Below are positions 28,442-38,501 of a DNA stretch of 64,000 nucleotides, piece by piece. Position 1 is the first letter of the stretch. The number at the start of each line of letters is the position of its first letter. Source of the stretch: Minisyncoccota bacterium (GTDB lineage: Bacteria > Patescibacteriota > Minisyncoccia > Phycocordibacterales > UBA9973); the NCBI GenBank assembly GCA_041666045.1, contig JBAYHR010000003.1:2208-66207 (forward strand). The letters run 5' to 3'. The notes below the pieces were generated by a model. The model worked only from the letters and a program-made list of their open reading frames with translations, did not search any database and was not told the origin of the DNA. The position numbers and the translations under genes were made by a program.

Positions 28442-28696
28442 TTATAGTTTTTTACTTTTAACTTCTTCCACATTAGCGAATTCCGACAATTTTTTAATCG
28501 CTTCGATAACTTCTAAAATATCTGCTAATTCTTCAACATTTTTTAATTCAAGAAATTCTTTTGTTTCTTCGTCAAGTTTTTTAAATAATTCTTCTTTATA
28601 TTCTTCTGGGTTTGCAATCCTCTTTTCATAAGAAATACCTCTAGAATCTAAATGTTCTGGTATTTTATCTCTTACCAATTTATTATAACTTTCCAT
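28442..28696 (-). CDS. MazG-like nucleotide pyrophosphohydrolase (all-alpha NTP-PPase)
   Basis: KLVRDKIPE N-terminus and acidic EExxE helices (EELADILEVIEAI). 84 aa. Confidence 0.5.
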   Translation of the reverse strand: MESYNKLVRDKIPEHLDSRGISYEKRIANPEEYKEELFKKLDEETKEFLELKNVEELADILEVIEAIKKLSEFANVEEVKSKKL

Positions 28697-30768: not shown

Positions 30769-31689
30769 TTGTTTTTTAAAATTATGGCAAATAGGCACCT
30801 TTCCAGATCAATAGTGCTCCAGACGCTTTTTGAGTGGGATTTTAACGGCGCAAAAGAAACTAATATTAAAGAAATAGTAAATCGTGATCTAAACGAATTT
30901 GCTCCAGGATTAGAAGATGATGTATTCGTTTTTTCATTAGTTGAACAGATATTTAAAAAGAGAAAAGTTATTGATGAAATAATAGAAAAAGCTGCGCCAG
31001 ATTGGCCTATTGATAAAATTTCTGTCGTTGATAGAAATATTTTAAGAATCGGTTTAACTGAGCTTCTTTTTGGCGATAGAAACCAAGTTCCTCCCAAAGT
31101 TGCTATTAATGAAGCGATAGAATTGGCAAAAACTTTCGGTGGAGAAAATTCTAGTAAATTTGTGAATGGAGTGCTCGGCGCAGTTTACAAAGAAATAGGG
31201 GAACCAGGGAAAGATGAAATAAGTAAAAAGAAAAAGAAAGATGACGAGCCAGTAGATATTACGAAACTACCAGTAGAAAAATTAGGAGGGGCTTTGATTT
31301 ATGCAAAAAAAGATAACAATGTTTTGTTTGCATTAGTTCATGATGTTTTTGGTTATTGGACATTATCAAAAGGGCACATAGAAGAAGGTGAGAATGAAGA
31401 AGATGGTACAAAAAGAGAAATAAAAGAAGAGATCAATCTTGATATAGAAATAAAAGAAAAGCTCGGAGAGAATGAATATGTTGCTAGTCATCCAGAAAAA
31501 GGTAAGACTTTAAAGAAAGTAATATATTTCTTAGCAGAAAGTCCTTATCGAGAGCTTGTGCTTGAGAGTTCAGGTGGCCTTGATGGGGCAAGATGGTTCC
31601 AGCTTTCTGAAATTCCAGAGCTTCGTATTTATAACGACATTATTCCATTAATTGAAAAAGCAATTGATATTATTAGTAAAAAAAAGTAA
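30769..31689 (+). CDS. nusB: NusB antitermination factor fused to a C-terminal Nudix hydrolase domain
   Basis: NusB fold in residues 1-140 (RSIVLQTLFEWDF..., ILRIGLTELLF). Nudix box GHIEEGENEEDGTKREIKEEINL at residues 200-225. Confidence 0.75.
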   Translation: MFFKIMANRHLSRSIVLQTLFEWDFNGAKETNIKEIVNRDLNEFAPGLEDDVFVFSLVEQIFKKRKVIDEIIEKAAPDWPIDKISVVDRNILRIGLTELLFGDRNQVPPKVAINEAIELAKTFGGENSSKFVNGVLGAVYKEIGEPGKDEISKKKKKDDEPVDITKLPVEKLGGALIYAKKDNNVLFALVHDVFGYWTLSKGHIEEGENEEDGTKREIKEEINLDIEIKEKLGENEYVASHPEKGKTLKKVIYFLAESPYRELVLESSGGLDGARWFQLSEIPELRIYNDIIPLIEKAIDIISKKK

Positions 31690-31740: not shown

Positions 31741-32451
31741 ATGCCTATAATCAAAATGATTAACTTTTCAGATTTTGAGAAAAAAACTAAGGTAGTTTTT
31801 AAAGATAAAGGTTTACTCAAACAAGCTTTTATACATCGTTCTTATATTAATGAAAATCCAAATGTTGGGCTTTCGCACAATGAACGATTGGAATTTTTAG
31901 GCGATGCAGTGCTTGAGCTTATCGTTACAGATTTTCTTTATAAAAAATATCCTTCTTATACAGAAGGAGAATTGACTGCTATTCGTTCAGCTCTTGTGAA
32001 TGCGATAATTATTTCTGAAATTGCTTTAAAAATAGGAATGAACGATTTCTTGCTTTTATCAAAAGGTGAGACAAAAGATGTTGGTAAAGCGCGTCAATAT
32101 ATATTGGCTAATACTTATGAAGCATATGTTGGTGCAGTTTATTTAGATCAAGGGTATGATGTCGCAAATAGATTTATTTCAGAATCTCTTTTGCATCATA
32201 CAGATGAAATAGTTTCAAAGAAACTTTGGCGTGATGCAAAAAGTTTGGTTCAAGAAAAAGCTCAAGAATTCGTAGGGGTGACTCCTTCTTATAAAGTTAT
32301 AAGTGAATCAGGTCCTGATCATGACAAGCATTTTACTGTAGGTATTTTGTTCGGAGGAGAATTAATAACAGAAGGAAAAGGGAAATCTAAACAAGAAGCT
32401 GAGCAAAAAGCCGCCGAATCTGCATTAAAAATCAAAAATTGGTTGGATTGA
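31741..32451 (+). CDS. rnc: ribonuclease III
   Basis: Signature NERLEFLGDAVLEL and a C-terminal dsRBD. Confidence 0.9.
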   Translation: MPIIKMINFSDFEKKTKVVFKDKGLLKQAFIHRSYINENPNVGLSHNERLEFLGDAVLELIVTDFLYKKYPSYTEGELTAIRSALVNAIIISEIALKIGMNDFLLLSKGETKDVGKARQYILANTYEAYVGAVYLDQGYDVANRFISESLLHHTDEIVSKKLWRDAKSLVQEKAQEFVGVTPSYKVISESGPDHDKHFTVGILFGGELITEGKGKSKQEAEQKAAESALKIKNWLD

Positions 32452-32478
32452 ACCCGGAAGTAGATTTTGAGATAGATT

Positions 32479-34194
32479 ATGAAAAGTGAAACAAAAAAAT
32501 GTCAAAACTGTAAAAATGACTTCATAATAGAGCCTGAAGATTTTAATTTTTATGAAAAAATAAAAGTCCCTCCACCAACTTTTTGTCCACATTGTCGTTT
32601 TGTAAGAAGAATGGCTTATCGTAATGAAAGAACTTTATTTAAACGTTTTTGTGATTTATGTAAAAGAAATATTATATCAATATATCCCTCAAGTGTAGTT
32701 TTTCCAGTATATTGCAAAGAATGCTGGTATTTGGATAAGTGGGAAGCGACAGAATATGGTAGGGATTATGATTTTTCTAGGCCATTTTTTGAACAGTTAA
32801 AGGAATTATTTTTTTCTGTTCCTCATCTTGCAATTTGGCAGAGAAATGTAATAAATTCTGAATTTTCAAATATGATAGGTGAGTGCAAGAATGTTTATCT
32901 TTCTTCATCAGTTGTTCTTGGTAGTGAAAATGTTTTTTATTCAAAAATAGTTGATAAATCCAGTAATATTTTTGATAGTTATGGGATAAAAGATTCAGAT
33001 AAACTATATGAAAATCTTGAATGTGAAAAAAATTATAATTCACAACATTTAATTCTTTCTAATAATTGCTTAGATTCTTATTTTCTTATTGATTGTAGAA
33101 ATTGTAGTAATTGTATTTTATCCAATAATTTGCGTAATAAACAATATTTTATACGTAATAAAAAATATTCCAAGGAAGATTATTTTAAAGAGTTGGGAAA
33201 TTTAAATTTAGGAAGTAGAAAATCACGTGAAATTTTAATAAAAGAATTTGAAAAAATAAAAAAGAATGCTATCTATCGTTTTGCTAATATTAACAAATCA
33301 ATTAGTTCAACTGGAAACAATTTATTGAATGTTAAAAATTGTATAAATTGTTTTGATGTTTACAATACTGAAAATTCAAAAAATTGTTATCGTGTTATTT
33401 CCAATAAAGACAGTATGGATGTTGATTTTGGAGGAGTGGCAGAATTGCTTTATGAATATAGTACTGGTGCATTAAATGACTACAATGTTAGATTTTCATA
33501 TTCAGCTATGGAGTCAGTGCAAAATGCCGAATATACGGAATCTTGTATTTCTTCATCTAATATTTTTGGATGTAACAGTTTAAAGAAAAAGGAATATGTA
33601 ATTTTTAATAAAATTTATTCTAAAGAAGGATTTTACGAGCTTCGCGAGAAAATAATTGAGCATATGAATTCTATGCCATTTATTGGTAATAATGGCAGGG
33701 TATATAGATATGGAGAATTTTTTCCTGTAGAATTTTCTCATTTTTCATATAACGAAAGTTGTGCTCAAGATTTTTTTCCACTTACAAAAAATGAAATTCT
33801 AGAGAAGGGATATATTTGGCATGAGCCAGAAGAAAAAAATAATATCTACACTATTTCTGCTGAACTTATCCCGGACGATATAAAAGAAGTTGAAAATAAA
33901 ATTTTAAATGAGGCCTTACAATGTTTACATAACAGGGAATGCAATCATCAATGTACGAAAGCATTTCGTTTAACACAAGATGAGTTTTCTTTTTACAAAG
34001 AACACAATATTCCAATTCCAAATAAATGTTACAATTGTAGATATTATGGAAGATTTCAAAAGATTTTACCTCTCAAACTCTGGTATCGAAAGTGTATGAA
34101 AGAAGGATGTAATAATGAATTTGAAACAAGTTATGATCCAGAAAGACCTGAAATCGTGTATTGTGAGCGTTGTTATCAGCAAGAGGTATATTAG
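32479..34194 (+). CDS. cysteine-rich repeat protein: terminal double zinc-ribbon modules flanking ~12-residue Asn/Ser/Cys-rich repeats
   Basis: N- and C-terminal modules are related to each other. The N-terminal one reads CQNCKNDFIIEPEDFNFYEKIKVPPPTFCPHCR and the C-terminal one CNHQCTKAFRLTQDEFSFYKEHNIPIPNKCYNCR. The central region has a periodic pattern [S/C]xN[VIL][FY]xS... Confidence 0.6.
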   Translation: MKSETKKCQNCKNDFIIEPEDFNFYEKIKVPPPTFCPHCRFVRRMAYRNERTLFKRFCDLCKRNIISIYPSSVVFPVYCKECWYLDKWEATEYGRDYDFSRPFFEQLKELFFSVPHLAIWQRNVINSEFSNMIGECKNVYLSSSVVLGSENVFYSKIVDKSSNIFDSYGIKDSDKLYENLECEKNYNSQHLILSNNCLDSYFLIDCRNCSNCILSNNLRNKQYFIRNKKYSKEDYFKELGNLNLGSRKSREILIKEFEKIKKNAIYRFANINKSISSTGNNLLNVKNCINCFDVYNTENSKNCYRVISNKDSMDVDFGGVAELLYEYSTGALNDYNVRFSYSAMESVQNAEYTESCISSSNIFGCNSLKKKEYVIFNKIYSKEGFYELREKIIEHMNSMPFIGNNGRVYRYGEFFPVEFSHFSYNESCAQDFFPLTKNEILEKGYIWHEPEEKNNIYTISAELIPDDIKEVENKILNEALQCLHNRECNHQCTKAFRLTQDEFSFYKEHNIPIPNKCYNCRYYGRFQKILPLKLWYRKCMKEGCNNEFETSYDPERPEIVYCERCYQQEVY

Positions 34195-34210: not shown

Positions 34211-36310
34211 ATGCGACTTAAGAATCTAGAAATAAACGGTTTTAAATCTTTTTCTAAAAAAACAACTTTGGAGTTTTTGAGCCCGATAGTTTCAGTTGTT
34301 GGTCCAAATGGTTCTGGAAAATCAAATGTCGTAGAAGCTATTCGTTTTGTGCTTGGAGAACAATCAATGAAATCAATGCGTGGAAAGCTAGGGCTAGATT
34401 TGATATTCAAGGGATCTAAATTTTTACCAAAAGGCTCAAGAGCATCAGTTACAATTTATTTTAATAATTCTGATAAAGTTTTTAAACTTTCAAATGAAGT
34501 TGGTGAGAATGTTGATTTGAATTACGATACTGTTTCTATCTCCAGAGAAGTATATTCTGATGGTGTTAATAAATATATTTTAAACGGTAGTGAAGTAAGA
34601 TTGAAAGATATAAACAATCTTTTAGCTTCTGTTAATATTGGTTCTTCTGGTCACCATATCATTTCTCAGGGTGAAGCAGATAGAATTTTGAATGCGTCAG
34701 GAAAAGACAGAAGAGAAATGATAGAAGATGCCTTAGGTTTAAAAATTTATCAATATAAAATAAAAGAATCTGAAAGAAAACTTGAACGTACCAGTAATAA
34801 TATGAAAGAAGTTTCTTTGCTTCGCAGAGAAAACGCTCCACACCTTAATTTTTTAAGAAAACAAGTTGAAAAATTCGAAAAAGCAAAAGAGATGAAGATA
34901 GATCTTCTTTCTTTGTATAGAGAATATTTAAAGAGAGAAGAAATTTATCTTGATAGTGAAAAAAATGTAATAAATTCTGATAAAAAAGATTTAGAAGAAA
35001 AACTTTCAGTTATAGAGCATAGTTTTTTGGAATTAGGGAGTAAGCCAGAAGAAAAGGAAAACAATGCTTATGGAGAAATGCGAGAGGAAGAAAGAAAAAT
35101 ATCAGAGCTAAGAACTCTTAAAGATGAATTTTCTAGAAAATTAGGACGTACACAAGCAATGCTTGAATTAAAAGAAAATAGAGTAAAAATGGCAGGTAAA
35201 TGTCCAGTTTGCGGTAGTATTGTTGCGAAAAAAGAAGAAGATGAAAAAGAATTTGCTGAATTAAAAGATACAGAAAATAAAATCAAATCTGACATAGCTG
35301 ATCTTATAGAAAAAGAGAAAGAATCACAGGCAAAAATAGAGTCATTCAAGATTGTTATAGACGTGGATAAAGATAAAAAAAGATCAGGAGATGTAAAAAG
35401 GCTTGAGTTAACAATGGATAAAAATAAAATTTTATCAGAACTTAATTTGGTAAAGATTAAAGAAGATCAACTTTCTCATATAGAAAATGATTTTTTGAAT
35501 GAAATAAAAGAAGGTGGGGCATTAATAGGACAAGATATATTATCCTATAAAAATTTTCAAACTGAGATGGTTGATAGAAGCCTTCAAGAAGAAGTAAGAA
35601 GAAAAATTGAAAGAATAAAAATAAAATTAGAAGATGCTGGAATGGGTGGAGGAGTTGAAGTGATAAAAGAATTTGAAGAAGTAACAGAACGTGATAAGTT
35701 TTTGGAAAAAGAAATGGAAGATCTCTCAAAGAGCATAGAGTCATTACAGAAATTAATGGCAGATTTAAAAGAAAAGATAGATATAGAATTTAAAGAAGGT
35801 ATTAAAAAAATAAATGTTGAATTTCAAGAACTATTTTCTCTTATGTTCGGCGGGGGAACAGCAAATCTTTTAATTACAACTGAAGATAAAAGAAAGAAAG
35901 ATAAAGACGATGATTTTGCTGGAGACGTTGAGGAAAATGAAGAAGAAAAAATTGAACAGGGAATAGAAATAAATGTATCTTTACCTCATAAAAAAGTTAA
36001 AGAACTTCATGCTTTGTCAGGAGGGGAAAGATCTCTTACTTCTATCGCATTATTGTTTGCAATGTCACAGGTGAATCCTCCACCATTTTTAGTGCTTGAT
36101 GAAACTGATGCCGCTCTTGATGAAGCAAATTCTCGTAAATATGGAGATATGTTAGAGAAGCTTTCAAAGCATTCACAGCTTATAGTTGTGACTCATAATC
36201 GTGAGACAATGAGTCGCGCTGGGGTACTTTATGGAGTGACAATAGGCGCTGATGGGGCATCTAAGTTATTATCTGTCAAGTTTGAAGAGGCTACAGCTAT
36301 TGCAAAATAA
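34211..36310 (+). CDS. smc: SMC/Rad50-family ATPase, short form with central CxxC zinc-hook-like motif
   Basis: Walker A GPNGSGKSNVVEAIRFVLGE. C-terminal signature LSGGERSLTSIALLFA plus Walker B FLVLDETDAALD. Long coiled coil with central GKCPVCGS. The ORF-track start at 34115 is probably too far upstream. Confidence 0.8.
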   Translation: MRLKNLEINGFKSFSKKTTLEFLSPIVSVVGPNGSGKSNVVEAIRFVLGEQSMKSMRGKLGLDLIFKGSKFLPKGSRASVTIYFNNSDKVFKLSNEVGENVDLNYDTVSISREVYSDGVNKYILNGSEVRLKDINNLLASVNIGSSGHHIISQGEADRILNASGKDRREMIEDALGLKIYQYKIKESERKLERTSNNMKEVSLLRRENAPHLNFLRKQVEKFEKAKEMKIDLLSLYREYLKREEIYLDSEKNVINSDKKDLEEKLSVIEHSFLELGSKPEEKENNAYGEMREEERKISELRTLKDEFSRKLGRTQAMLELKENRVKMAGKCPVCGSIVAKKEEDEKEFAELKDTENKIKSDIADLIEKEKESQAKIESFKIVIDVDKDKKRSGDVKRLELTMDKNKILSELNLVKIKEDQLSHIENDFLNEIKEGGALIGQDILSYKNFQTEMVDRSLQEEVRRKIERIKIKLEDAGMGGGVEVIKEFEEVTERDKFLEKEMEDLSKSIESLQKLMADLKEKIDIEFKEGIKKINVEFQELFSLMFGGGTANLLITTEDKRKKDKDDDFAGDVEENEEEKIEQGIEINVSLPHKKVKELHALSGGERSLTSIALLFAMSQVNPPPFLVLDETDAALDEANSRKYGDMLEKLSKHSQLIVVTHNRETMSRAGVLYGVTIGADGASKLLSVKFEEATAIAK

Positions 36311-36578: not shown

Positions 36579-36629
36579 AAAATTTTAATTAAAAAAACGT
36601 TGAGTATTTACTTGGCGTTTTTTTATTTT

Positions 36630-38501
36630 TTAAAAATCTATTTTTTCTTCTTTGGCTTTTGTTACTGTTTCTGGCTTAAAAACTTTATTTAGATTTACTA
36701 TATTTTTCTTTATACTCATTGTTCCATTTTTATTTAATTTAATTTCAAGTAACATTCCTTCCATTGTATTTTCACTAAAATATTGATCAAAAATAAAATT
36801 ACCCAGAGAATAAGCTATAAAGCCATCTTTGTAAATTTCAGTATCTTGCATTACATGCGGGTGAGTGCCTATTATTATTTTTGCTCCATTGTCTATTGCT
36901 TTGTGCGCCAAGTATTCTTGTCTGTCATTGTGTTTTGTTTGATACTCTTCACCGAAGTGAAATGTCACTATTAAATGATCAACTTGTTTGGAAGCATTTT
37001 TTATAATTTCTTCAAAACGTGGATTGTTCGTCAAAAGAAGTCCTGATTTATTTTCACTTGCTTGCATGTTTGGTCCAACATCAGAGAATCCCAAGTATCC
37101 TATTTTTATTTCATACTTTTCTATGATTACTGGCTGTTCTGCTTCTAATGTATTTATTCCGCCTCCAGTATAAAGAATTTCATTTTCTTTTAATCTCAGT
37201 AATGTGTCTGTGTATGCATCACGACCCCAATCTCCGACATGATTGTTCGCTACTGAAACAATACTTAACCCTGCGCCTTTCAATGCAGGTATTACAGAAG
37301 GATCCATTCTGAATGAATATAAATTTTTTCTGTCACTGCCTTTGTTTGAGGCTGGTCCTTCTAAGTTTGCAAAAGTAACATCAGCATCTTTTAATATATC
37401 TAAGTTTTCAAATAAAGAAGAGTAGTCCCCATTAAAATTTTTGTTTACTGAATTTTTAACTCCACGGTCTAGCATTATATCTCCGCCAAAGACTAGGTTT
37501 ATAAAATTGGGATCTATGTCCTCTAATATTCCTCCTTTTTGTTTAACCCAAGCTAAGCTTGCGTCACTTTCCAATCCATAATATACATTTTTTGTTAAAT
37601 AATTATAAATACTATTTGTGTCTTTATATCTGTCAGCGCTTCTTAAGATCACTATACCTATATTTCTATTGTTTTTGTTTTCAAGAGGAATAGAAAATAT
37701 AGATAATGATGTTTGTTTTGATTCATCTATATATCCTCTTTTTCCGCCCATATAACCTTCAAATCTTAAGAACTGGCTATTGTTAAACCAAACATGTTTT
37801 TTATTATCAAAACTTCTTTTTGTTGTGATTGATAAAAGATCAGGTTTGTTTAATTTTAAGTATTTAGAAAATTTAAAAAGATCAGATACTGTTGATTGAT
37901 TATGTTCTGAGAGTCCGCTTGGATCTTTAAAAGAAGTTGAAAAAAGTCCTAAGTCTTTTGCTTTTTCATTCATTTTTTCTATAAAAATATCTCTTCCAGA
38001 ATATTCAGCTATTGCTTCAGCCGCGTCATTGCTTGATTCAAGTAAAAGAGGATATATCAAATCTCCAACTTTTATTTTTTCATTTACACGAAAGTTTCCA
38101 TTCTCTCCGTATGTAGAGAGAGATCTATTTGATATTTTAGTTATTTCTTCTTGATTTTGATTTTCTTCTGAAACTGTGGCTGTCATAAGTTTTGAGACTG
38201 AAGCAATAGGAAATCTTTTATTTGAATTTTTTTGTAAAATAATTTCTCCAGTATCTAAGTCGCCGATGAAATAAGCTTCGGCATTTACTTTTAATTGTTT
38301 TTTTGGATCTTTTATAAAATAAAATTCTTTTGGTGTATTGTCTTCCAGTATTTCATTTTTATTTTGAATTATGTTTATATTTTGGGATATTTTTTTATAA
38401 TTAATATTATTGGTAATTGTAAAAATAAAAAAAATACCAATTGAAATTGAAAAAATTGTCCAAAAAATATATTTTAATTTTGTTTTTAAATCTGGATTCA
38501 T
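36630..38501 (-). CDS. fusion: D-alanyl-D-alanine carboxypeptidase (peptidase S11) + CapA/PGA-family metallophosphatase
   Basis: N-terminal TM. SxxK active site in PIASVSKLMTA. C-terminal CapA motifs (ANLEGP, VANNHVGDWG). Confidence 0.7.
   Translation of the reverse strand: MNPDLKTKLKYIFWTIFSISIGIFFIFTITNNINYKKISQNINIIQNKNEILEDNTPKEFYFIKDPKKQLKVNAEAYFIGDLDTGEIILQKNSNKRFPIASVSKLMTATVSEENQNQEEITKISNRSLSTYGENGNFRVNEKIKVGDLIYPLLLESSNDAAEAIAEYSGRDIFIEKMNEKAKDLGLFSTSFKDPSGLSEHNQSTVSDLFKFSKYLKLNKPDLLSITTKRSFDNKKHVWFNNSQFLRFEGYMGGKRGYIDESKQTSLSIFSIPLENKNNRNIGIVILRSADRYKDTNSIYNYLTKNVYYGLESDASLAWVKQKGGILEDIDPNFINLVFGGDIMLDRGVKNSVNKNFNGDYSSLFENLDILKDADVTFANLEGPASNKGSDRKNLYSFRMDPSVIPALKGAGLSIVSVANNHVGDWGRDAYTDTLLRLKENEILYTGGGINTLEAEQPVIIEKYEIKIGYLGFSDVGPNMQASENKSGLLLTNNPRFEEIIKNASKQVDHLIVTFHFGEEYQTKHNDRQEYLAHKAIDNGAKIIIGTHPHVMQDTEIYKDGFIAYSLGNFIFDQYFSENTMEGMLLEIKLNKNGTMSIKKNIVNLNKVFKPETVTKAKEEKIDF

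Follow-up and report, generated by a model that had tools for sequence, protein, structure and literature searches.

In groundwater and sediment, few bacteria are as abundant or as poorly understood as Parcubacteria, about half of whose genes lack an assigned function. This analysis concerns one such gene, which encodes a cysteine-rich protein of 571 amino acids and lies between rnc and smc in a 64,000-nucleotide stretch of DNA (the window; contig JBAYHR010000003.1, assembly GCA_041666045.1) from a Minisyncoccota bacterium. The protein belongs to a genuine undescribed family with an unusual predicted fold, composed of recognisable elements, i.e., zinc fingers and a beta-solenoid. Defining the family provides an annotation handle for a new domain family built of recognisable parts.

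The terminal modules of the protein resemble the fingers zf_Tbcl and zf_Tbcl_2 (PF13451, PF23477), with a CxxC pair, about 24 residues containing F.I...FY, a second CxxC pair and a basic helix. These two families have no assigned function in Pfam and no mention in the literature searched. Unlike them, the window protein has the finger fused to a second ribbon, carries the arrangement in duplicate at both ends and adds a core of about 400 residues. A described counterpart of the core is the beta-helix of secreted beetle antifreeze proteins of the TmAFP type, which is built of 12-residue coils with a TCT motif and a disulfide-forming cysteine pair per coil. The window protein likewise has very short coils, of 12 residues, in which Ser, Asn, Thr and Cys are abundant, and shows lag-12 stacking, but it has neither the TCT motif nor a cysteine pair per coil, its conserved core cysteines lying only at 197–215 and 356–374. 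It also differs in being predicted to be cytoplasmic, in its two packed solenoid halves and in the absence of sequence or Foldseek similarity to TmAFP. The left-handed hexapeptide beta-helix (LpxA, LpxD, GlmU) supplies the top-ranked, non-significant structural neighbours and likewise has strands about every 6 residues, but the coil here is 12 rather than 18 residues long, the template modelling (TM) score is at most 0.1 and acyltransferase features are missing; the Hexapep profile matched neither the window protein nor 21 diverse paralogues. Bactofilin and pentapeptide-repeat solenoids gave no Pfam match at E ≤ 1 and no Foldseek match. For the DnaJ-type zinc finger there was no DnaJ or DnaJ_CXXCXGXG match, and no CxxC of the window protein precedes GxG. 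At the level of genome organization, the paralogous families of haemoplasmas form tandem co-oriented arrays in reduced genomes and are typically surface-exposed and fast-evolving. The Parcubacteria family resembles them in its many tandem co-oriented paralogues, which take up a noticeable share of a very small genome, and differs in its predicted cytoplasmic location, GrpE-like conservation and lack of recent duplicates.

Size and architecture of the family

The first-pass annotation, which had been made from the sequence alone, described the protein as unclassified, and this description is borne out. Neither Pfam nor NCBIfam contained a match to it at E ≤ 1, no PDB sequence matched, and PADLOC gave 0 matches for the window protein and single stray ones (E of at least 0.0012) across the 21 paralogues; none of these four resources revealed confident homology to a characterised family. 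PHROGs returned nothing except unnamed families, probably matching the zinc finger, an exact-sequence look-up found no record of the protein, and no published description of the family was found in the literature searched. A word-indexed search returned over 5,400 clusters of homologues at 90% identity. The 120 best are all full length and 57–72% identical, and the named members (from Paceibacterota, Nomurabacteria and similar lineages) are all called 'hypothetical protein'. A profile of diverse paralogues brought in 120 further members at 39–51% identity, among them proteins of Liptonbacteria, Staskawiczbacteria and Sungbacteria. When 1.84 billion representatives were scanned exhaustively with HMMER, 5,505 clusters at 50% identity had E ≤ 1e-3, including 2,382 with E ≤ 1e-30; among the best 150 of these clusters, nearly all have the same end-to-end architecture of 544–612 residues, with a few shorter, apparently truncated entries.

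At least 583 family loci occur in GTDB species-representative genomes. The kept loci with a lineage name come from metagenome-assembled genomes (MAGs) of the Patescibacteria/Parcubacteria type, bar one labelled Burkholderiales, which we infer to be a mis-binned contig. The NCBI lineages recorded for the named phyla bear out the Parcubacteria assignment, and no family member was found among IMG/VR viral contigs. The family is very large, paralogous and restricted to the Parcubacteria group. With thousands of clusters, multiple copies, co-chaperone-like conservation and no domain model, it represents one of the larger annotation blind spots. One MAG (JBAYFP01; loci L017, L064 and L075) contains at least 11 family copies at three loci, amounting to about 19 kb of coding sequence, a notable share of a genome of this kind.

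The gene and the parts of its protein are located as follows:

32479..34194, + strand: whole gene, 571 amino acids plus stop, with an ATG start (list of open reading frames, ORFs)
32479..32763, + strand: N-terminal double zinc-finger module, residues 1–95, homologous to the C-terminal module; predicted local distance difference test (pLDDT) score about 92–96
32764..32865, + strand: connector, residues 96–129, with F103, F104, Q106 and P115 conserved in family alignments; helix 103–111 in the model
32866..33168, + strand: repeat half A, residues 130–230, about 8 coils of 12 residues (hhalign, lag-12 autocorrelation, covariation)
33169..33282, + strand: helical insert after half A, residues 231–268; helices 232–242 and 247–262 in the model
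33283..33618, + strand: repeat half B, residues 269–380, homologous to half A with weaker periodicity (hhalign, covariation)
33619..33675, + strand: helix after half B, residues 381–399, with H395 (His in 74% of members); helix 382–398 in the model, and conservation
33676..33912, + strand: acidic conserved domain, residues 400–478, with invariant alignment columns and a mean net charge of −5.5
33913..34191, + strand: C-terminal double zinc-finger module, residues 479–571, homologous to the N-terminal module

Each end of the protein carries two Cys4-type sites of the treble-clef/zinc-ribbon kind. In the N-terminal module, site 1 consists of C8/C11/C36/C39, followed by an Arg-rich helix after C39, and site 2 of C58/C61/C79/C82; the C-terminal module contains site 3 (C488/C492/C517/C520, plus C482 and H484) and site 4 (C539/C544/C562/C565). 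The first-pass annotation had recognised the two modules as related by the pattern CxxC..F.I..ED..FY..P.P..C..CR, which indeed spans C8–R40 exactly and recurs at C488–R521 as a variant with a Cx3C first knuckle and DE in place of ED. Homology of the two ends is evident in the 26% identity between residues 6–83 and 486–566 (pairwise BLASTP, E = 7e-10) and in the mutual match of the end-module family profiles (hhalign probability 99.2%, E = 1.1e-19). The N-terminal pattern, C8xxC11...F15.I17..ED21..FY25...P31.P33..C36xxC39R40, is invariant across the family. Site 1 is conserved in 100% of members, sites 1, 3 and 4 are essentially invariant, with the ligands of the C-terminal module conserved at 79–100%, and the site 2 ligands C61, C79 and C82 are retained in only 53%. 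Conserved arginines follow the zinc knuckles (R40, R43, R44 and R48; R521 and R525), and the two modules are mildly basic, with net charges of +2.4 and +2.9, in a protein that is about neutral as a whole. Weak matches to zf_Tbcl_2 and zf_Tbcl were found in 9 and 7 of the 21 diverse paralogues (best E of 1e-5 and 9e-6, respectively), and neither family matched the window protein itself at E ≤ 1. Searching the PDB with the family profile gave only a non-significant LIM-like match on the last zinc finger (E = 0.11), while structural neighbours in BFVD were limited to phage 'putative zinc-ribbon domain' proteins, on the zinc-finger part. Assignment to the HNH/treble-clef endonucleases found no backing in an HNH Pfam match or an invariant His in either terminal module, and the BFVD matches were weak and extended over about 65 residues.

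The core between these modules is duplicated. Half A (residues ~130–242) and half B (~279–392) align with an hhalign probability of 99.9% (E = 1.4e-36), and common to both are the motifs KN, EN..Y, KD..D, E..YE, F-S, C...C and LR.K.Y.I.NKQY[ST]KEEY. Half A has autocorrelation peaks at lag 12 (0.31 for hydrophobic and 0.35 for small residues), which are modest given that a control region reaches 0.25 at arbitrary lags. Mean-field covariation, calculated independently of AlphaFold from 528 family sequences after removal of gappy columns, placed 20 of the top-L pairs at lag 12, vs. 3–8 at neighbouring lags and only 3 at lag 18. In half A the couplings form ladders (N138-N151-N163, K160-D172-K184, S162-D174, N187-D199-N211, D205-N217 and L214-R226) that are characteristic of 12-residue coils stacked in parallel. 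Regularity is lower in half B, with K286-E298-K310 plus lags of 6 and 19–21. Strong couplings between the halves (S161/S162-V294, S143-T297 and V158/D159-N336/S342) indicate that A and B pack side by side, and residues 256–264 of the helical insert covary with 295, 321–323 and 337 of half B, to which helix 247–262 is coupled. The first-pass annotation had proposed about 20 copies of a ~12-residue unit; the repeat length stands, clearly in half A and more weakly in half B, whereas the count is closer to 16. The data support about 8+8 units in two packed halves with helices between them, in which the 12-residue coil is clearest in half A.

Cysteines are a further feature of the core. Half A ends in the cluster C197/C206/C209/C212, and position 215, a Cys in 75% of members, is Ser here; half B has conserved C356 and C365, and position 374, a Cys in 74% of members, is Val here. 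Family proteins contain 29–34 cysteines each, and the window protein has 29 (5.1%), along with 10.2% Asn and 8.4% Ser (18.6% for the two together). The acidic domain carries the near-invariant stretches Y411-G412-E413-F414-F415-P416 and Y424-N425-E426, and its residues 400–478 matched no Pfam family in the window protein or the 21 paralogues.

An AlphaFold run with 32 close homologues gave a pLDDT of 57 and a disordered core, and was replaced by one using an alignment of 149 diverse members. Structure prediction, named in the first-pass annotation as a check, thereby produced a confident model (pLDDT 88.4, predicted TM score 0.88, with pLDDT of about 70 in the most repetitive stretches) that matches no PDB fold. 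Short strands or bridges recur in it about every 6 residues along both halves. Foldseek found no significant match in the PDB, the best having E = 0.6–8 and TM scores of at most 0.1 and being mostly beta-helix proteins (LpxA, LpxD, GlmU, pectate lyase), and PDB and BFVD together yielded nothing beyond the zinc-finger ends. For structural biology, the gain is a confidently modelled double solenoid of an unusual, short-coil kind. The maximum 19-residue hydropathy is 0.92, with no signal peptide and no transmembrane segment, and the lack of a hydrophobic segment indicates that the protein is cytoplasmic. The earlier proposal of a novel metal-binding solenoid is thus upheld computationally by invariant Cys4 ligand sets, lag-12 covariation and the lack of a Foldseek match to the core, with metal binding as a prediction.

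A local insertion and ancient paralogue arrays

The immediate surroundings of the gene comprise the following features:

30769..31689, + strand: NusB–NUDIX fusion, 306 amino acids, upstream of rnc
31741..32451, + strand: rnc (RNase III), flanking the insertion upstream; Pfam matches to Ribonucleas_3_3, Ribonuclease_3 and dsrm
32452..32478, + strand: 27-nucleotide spacer from the rnc stop to the gene start, within the 1,759-nucleotide insertion defined against the empty site in locus L086
34195..34210, + strand: 16-nucleotide spacer to the smc start, TGATATAATCAAAGTT, near-verbatim in locus L085 and not found after other family genes
34211..36310, + strand: smc, short at 699 amino acids, downstream flank; SMC_N, and PDB Smc heads at E = 6e-79
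36590..36625, + strand: terminator-like site after smc, the only one on this strand, from a consensus scan only

The true start of smc is the ATG at 34211 (MRLKNLEINGFKSF) and not the overlapping ATG at 34115. Since the orthologues in L085 and L086 begin at the codon corresponding to 34211, the real gaps are 27 nucleotides before the gene and 16 after it. The G+C content is about 0.23–0.29 over the gene, and the window is AT-rich. Promoter-like sites occurred in a consensus scan at the frequency expected of shuffled sequence. The sole terminator-like site on the + strand lies 3' of smc, by which nusB-rnc-gene-smc is read as one operon, and expression of the gene probably depends on transcription reading through nusB-rnc-smc.

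Neighbourhoods of the family were examined within 6 kb at 80 of the at least 583 GTDB loci, chosen by similarity to the query, and at 3 loci of the closest homologues. Genes for rnc, smc, nusB or thrS were found at 0 of the 80 and 0 of the 3; the closest homologues (68–69% identical) follow grpE or lie beside ddl/alr. The junction itself was examined from the rnc side at 80 metagenomic loci whose RNase III is 77–97% identical, 48 of them informative. These loci keep the block thrS(-)-nusB-rnc-smc-pbp(-)-rnr(-), and rnc and smc abut in 45 of the 48, in agreement with the earlier remark that a conserved adjacency is split by this gene. In L086, which has ~86–89% DNA identity to the window, a single nucleotide separates the rnc stop from the smc ATG, while between the same codons the window has 27 + 1,716 + 16 = 1,759 nucleotides. 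Whether relatives carry the gene at this place, a question raised by the first-pass annotation, is answered largely in the negative; L085 does have a family gene there. Other relatives have NYN or PemK/MazF-type genes at the junction:

L135:5567–6052: NYN-domain gene
L164:904–1305: PemK/MazF-type toxin gene
L136:5700–6083: PemK/MazF-type toxin gene

The L164 junction also holds a 212-amino acid ORF without assignment. The window copy is a lineage-specific insertion, bounded precisely by the rnc stop and the smc start. The NYN and MazF-type genes at the same junction elsewhere mark it as an insertion hot spot for accessory genes, and because the rnc-smc position reflects a recent local insertion, the neighbouring genes tell little about function. 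The suggestion, made from these neighbours, of an association with nucleic acids is therefore not sustained, which corrects a tempting guilt by association: the site is an insertion hot spot rather than a functional clue.

The nearest relative, L085, has flanks of ~90% DNA identity and an RNase III of 97% protein identity, but its family gene at the junction is only ~49% identical to that of the window and 64% identical to copies in other genomes. The 16-nucleotide 3' spacer is common to the two, almost verbatim, and occurs after essentially none of 173 other family genes. The most parsimonious explanation is that a family gene was inserted once, in an ancestor, and that its body was later exchanged for one of another paralogue lineage, since the two loci share a site-specific 3' spacer and each copy has closer relatives elsewhere. 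The window and L085 genes have raised identity at their ends, which was considered as a sign of recombination breakpoints; as proof this was rejected, because the unrelated paralogue L024 shows the same pattern. A reading of the spacers as attC-like cassette ends was rejected as well, given their length of 16–27 nucleotides and their absence downstream of 173 other family genes. The insert is flanked by neither a transposase nor a repeat.

Elsewhere, the family is organized in arrays. The 80 loci contain 199 family genes, with two or more at 50 loci and 7–8 in a row at L028, L056, L059 and L070; in each of the 86 consecutive pairs the genes point the same way, and the median spacer is ~10 nucleotides. 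The best identity within a locus is 43% at the median and 67% at most, and for 96% of the genes a closer relative is found in a different genome (median 57%); both results identify array neighbours as old paralogues. In arrays after grpE, the types (551–558, 567–571 and ~580 amino acids) are 54–77% identical where GrpE is 65–83% identical, and arrays of related genomes differ by gain and loss of whole paralogue types. Very fast evolution, suggested by a median same-position identity of 34–45% in grpE arrays, was rejected when the identity matrix showed distinct types with gain and loss. Each type is conserved about as well as GrpE, which argues for purifying selection like that on a housekeeping co-chaperone and shows no sign of arms-race hypervariability.

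A gene for grpE, dnaK, dnaJ or a TraG/VirD4/HerA-like ATPase lies near 31 of the 80 family loci. The commonest immediate non-family neighbour is the VirD4-like ATPase (16 times), followed by grpE (10 times), and a typical order is rpoA-rplQ-rplM-rpsI-grpE-[family x2–5]-PaaX-like(-)-dnaK-ATPase(-dnaJ). As a 12-kb span covers ~1–2% of such a genome, the association with chaperone and ATPase genes is a strong enrichment. The ATPase carries a zf_Tbcl_2 finger, otherwise matches TrwB_AAD_bind, DUF87 and TraG-D_C, and looks soluble. It occurs at 22 of the 80 loci, e.g., L003:11469–13526 and the end of L081 (12432–13722), stands beside dnaK or dnaJ in many Parcubacteria, and falls into the 'orphan T4CP' (type IV coupling protein) class of candidate phyla radiation (CPR) genomes. 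A CutA1 gene adjoins the array at L081, the single locus at which this neighbour was annotated, and its cluster of ~101-amino acid proteins is found beside family genes 6 times. At L084:10065–13722, just downstream of a grpE-family array, lies the gene of a giant protein (3,452 amino acids; Calx-beta and fn3-like matches).

Possible functions of the family

We tentatively propose that family members are zinc-stabilised cytoplasmic binding scaffolds, with double zinc-finger ends, a duplicated core and an acidic domain, that are kept in paralogue arrays, a reading we consider plausible rather than probable. Zinc ions would lock the two end modules, and the doubled solenoid would present a rigid surface bearing the charged motifs of both halves (KN, EN..Y, KD..D, E..YE, LR.K), so that the protein would act as a non-enzymatic scaffold or adaptor. 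Differentiated paralogues may function jointly. Protein handling is the most likely setting, in which they would be clients, adaptors or co-factors of the Hsp70 system, of the VirD4-like ATPase or of both, and their role would lie outside RNA processing and chromosome condensation. The partners are placed in the Hsp70/ATPase neighbourhood because of the recurrent gene context; taken alone, this step toward protein-handling partners is open to considerable doubt. Testable hypotheses that follow concern zinc content and possible partners, namely DnaK, GrpE, the VirD4-like ATPase and sister paralogues.

Several considerations weigh against this proposal. The functional part is weak, all of its evidence being gene neighbourhood at 39% of loci, and the enrichment counts come from phylogenetically non-independent loci picked by similarity to the query. 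In CPR genomes, VirD4-like genes often occur as orphans: only 148 of 5,713 homologues lie near virB4 (10.1101/2025.01.22.634366). Deeper homology between the family and the ATPase was considered and rejected, the two having in common only one generic ribbon (hhalign probability 31%). A search for the CIRCE heat-shock operator gave no match with up to 4 mismatches, and neither a J-domain nor a DnaK-binding motif was found. The charged motifs of both halves could equally fit catalytic or ion-binding sites. Zinc binding by the end modules is predicted from ligand conservation and fold class, and the shape and handedness of the solenoid and the geometry of the central Cys cluster are those of a predicted model only.

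A bolder version of the scaffold proposal holds that a cytoplasmic machine specific to the lineage, coupled to Hsp70 and the orphan VirD4-like ATPase, is built from the differentiated paralogues or served by them, that the zinc-capped double solenoid is an undescribed fold and that whole cassettes are exchanged between operon positions. This is a somewhat unlikely conjecture. If true, it would describe a new cellular system characteristic of a large uncultured clade, and a measurable share of ~1-Mb Parcubacteria genomes would be given to an undescribed fold, as illustrated by the at least 11 copies of ~1.7 kb in one MAG.

Other explanations draw on the same observations. A self-assembling structural protein, i.e., a cytoskeleton-like or hetero-oligomeric lattice of stacked solenoids whose end modules dock head to tail and whose paralogues co-assemble, would account for the solenoid core, the homologous modules at both ends, the stable sets of differentiated paralogues in operons and the at least 11 copies in one MAG. 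It is nonetheless unlikely, as covariation describes a compact body of side-by-side halves with helices on top rather than an open-ended rod, and neither Pfam nor Foldseek revealed likeness to bactofilin or other polymer-forming families. Quite unlikely, too, is a nucleic-acid-binding factor acting with RNase III and SMC, in which the ribbons and Arg-rich helices bind RNA or DNA and the solenoid is a spacer. Tandem zinc ribbons of other proteins bind nucleic acids, arginines R40, R43, R44, R48, R521 and R525 are conserved behind the zinc knuckles, and the gene is tightly packed in nusB-rnc-gene-smc without an internal terminator; yet none of the genes rnc, smc and nusB is found near any of the 83 family loci, rnc and smc abut without an insert in 45 of 48 relatives at a junction that also takes MazF and NYN genes, and the zinc modules reach only +2.4 and +2.9 in a neutral to acidic protein.

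We attach a similarly small probability to a component of a conflict system, whether the protein serves the VirD4-like ATPase as effector or substrate or the gene is an accessory of the toxin/defence type that spreads as a cassette. The absence of a PADLOC match, of a copy on IMG/VR viral contigs and of a secretion signal speaks against it, as do the GrpE-like conservation of each type, the lack of recent duplicates (no same-locus pair above 67%), the site-specific spacers and the insert free of flanking transposases or repeats; moreover, most VirD4-like genes of CPR genomes lie away from a type IV secretion system (10.1101/2025.01.22.634366). In its favour are the VirD4/TraG-like ATPase as the commonest immediate neighbour (16 times), insertion at a hot spot common to MazF-type toxins, the different paralogue lineage (49% identity) at the same site in L085 between flanks ~90% identical, and array composition that differs among related genomes. 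An enzyme with a beta-helix body, e.g., acyltransferase-like or ion-dependent, with duplicated active-site motifs, is very improbable: all top Foldseek matches in the PDB are beta-helix proteins (LpxA, LpxD, GlmU, pectate lyase), KD..D, E..YE and R.K occur in both halves and YGEFFP/YNE is invariant, but the matches are non-significant (E of at least 0.6, TM at most 0.1), the coil is 12 and not 18 residues as in hexapeptide acyltransferases, the 21 paralogues lack a Hexapep or other enzyme-family match, and few enzymes call for 8 or more paralogues within a ~1-Mb genome. Very little weight likewise goes to a metal or redox role, as in zinc storage or buffering or an Hsp33-like redox-switched holdase. 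With 29–34 cysteines distributed over 4 terminal sites and conserved clusters in the centre, the proteins would suit such a role, and the location in an Hsp70 operon and the CutA1 gene beside the L081 array fit it too; the cysteines, however, form CxxC pairs of the structural ribbon type, 47% of members do without site 2, the extensive conserved surface outside the cysteines points to a specific binding role, and neither Pfam nor a PDB profile search found likeness to Hsp33 or metallothioneins.

Other features of the window

Between thrS and a UDG-family gene lies an 84-amino acid ORF (28442–28696, - strand) without a Pfam match. The protein encoded at 30769–31689 (+ strand) combines a NusB domain and a NUDIX hydrolase domain, a fusion kept in all relatives examined. 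The smc gene at 34211–36310 encodes genuine SMC heads, with E = 6e-79 to Bacillus/Geobacillus Smc and only 1e-10 to Rad50. An SMC_hinge Pfam match was not found in the 699-residue protein, and in the middle of its coiled coil (window ~35201–35212) stands the Rad50-zinc-hook-like sequence G-K-C-P-V-C-G. The motif G[RK]CP[LVT]CG is present in 29 of 54 smc orthologues of relatives, and the protein may be a hinge-less, hook-type SMC. Its coiled coil is hypervariable, with 34–52% DNA identity between the window and L085 over 34950–35550, vs. ~90% in the flanks. Downstream, at 36630–38501 (- strand), a 623-amino acid fusion of a D-Ala-D-Ala carboxypeptidase (Peptidase_S11) with PGA_cap (CapA-like) adjoins smc, as it does in relatives.

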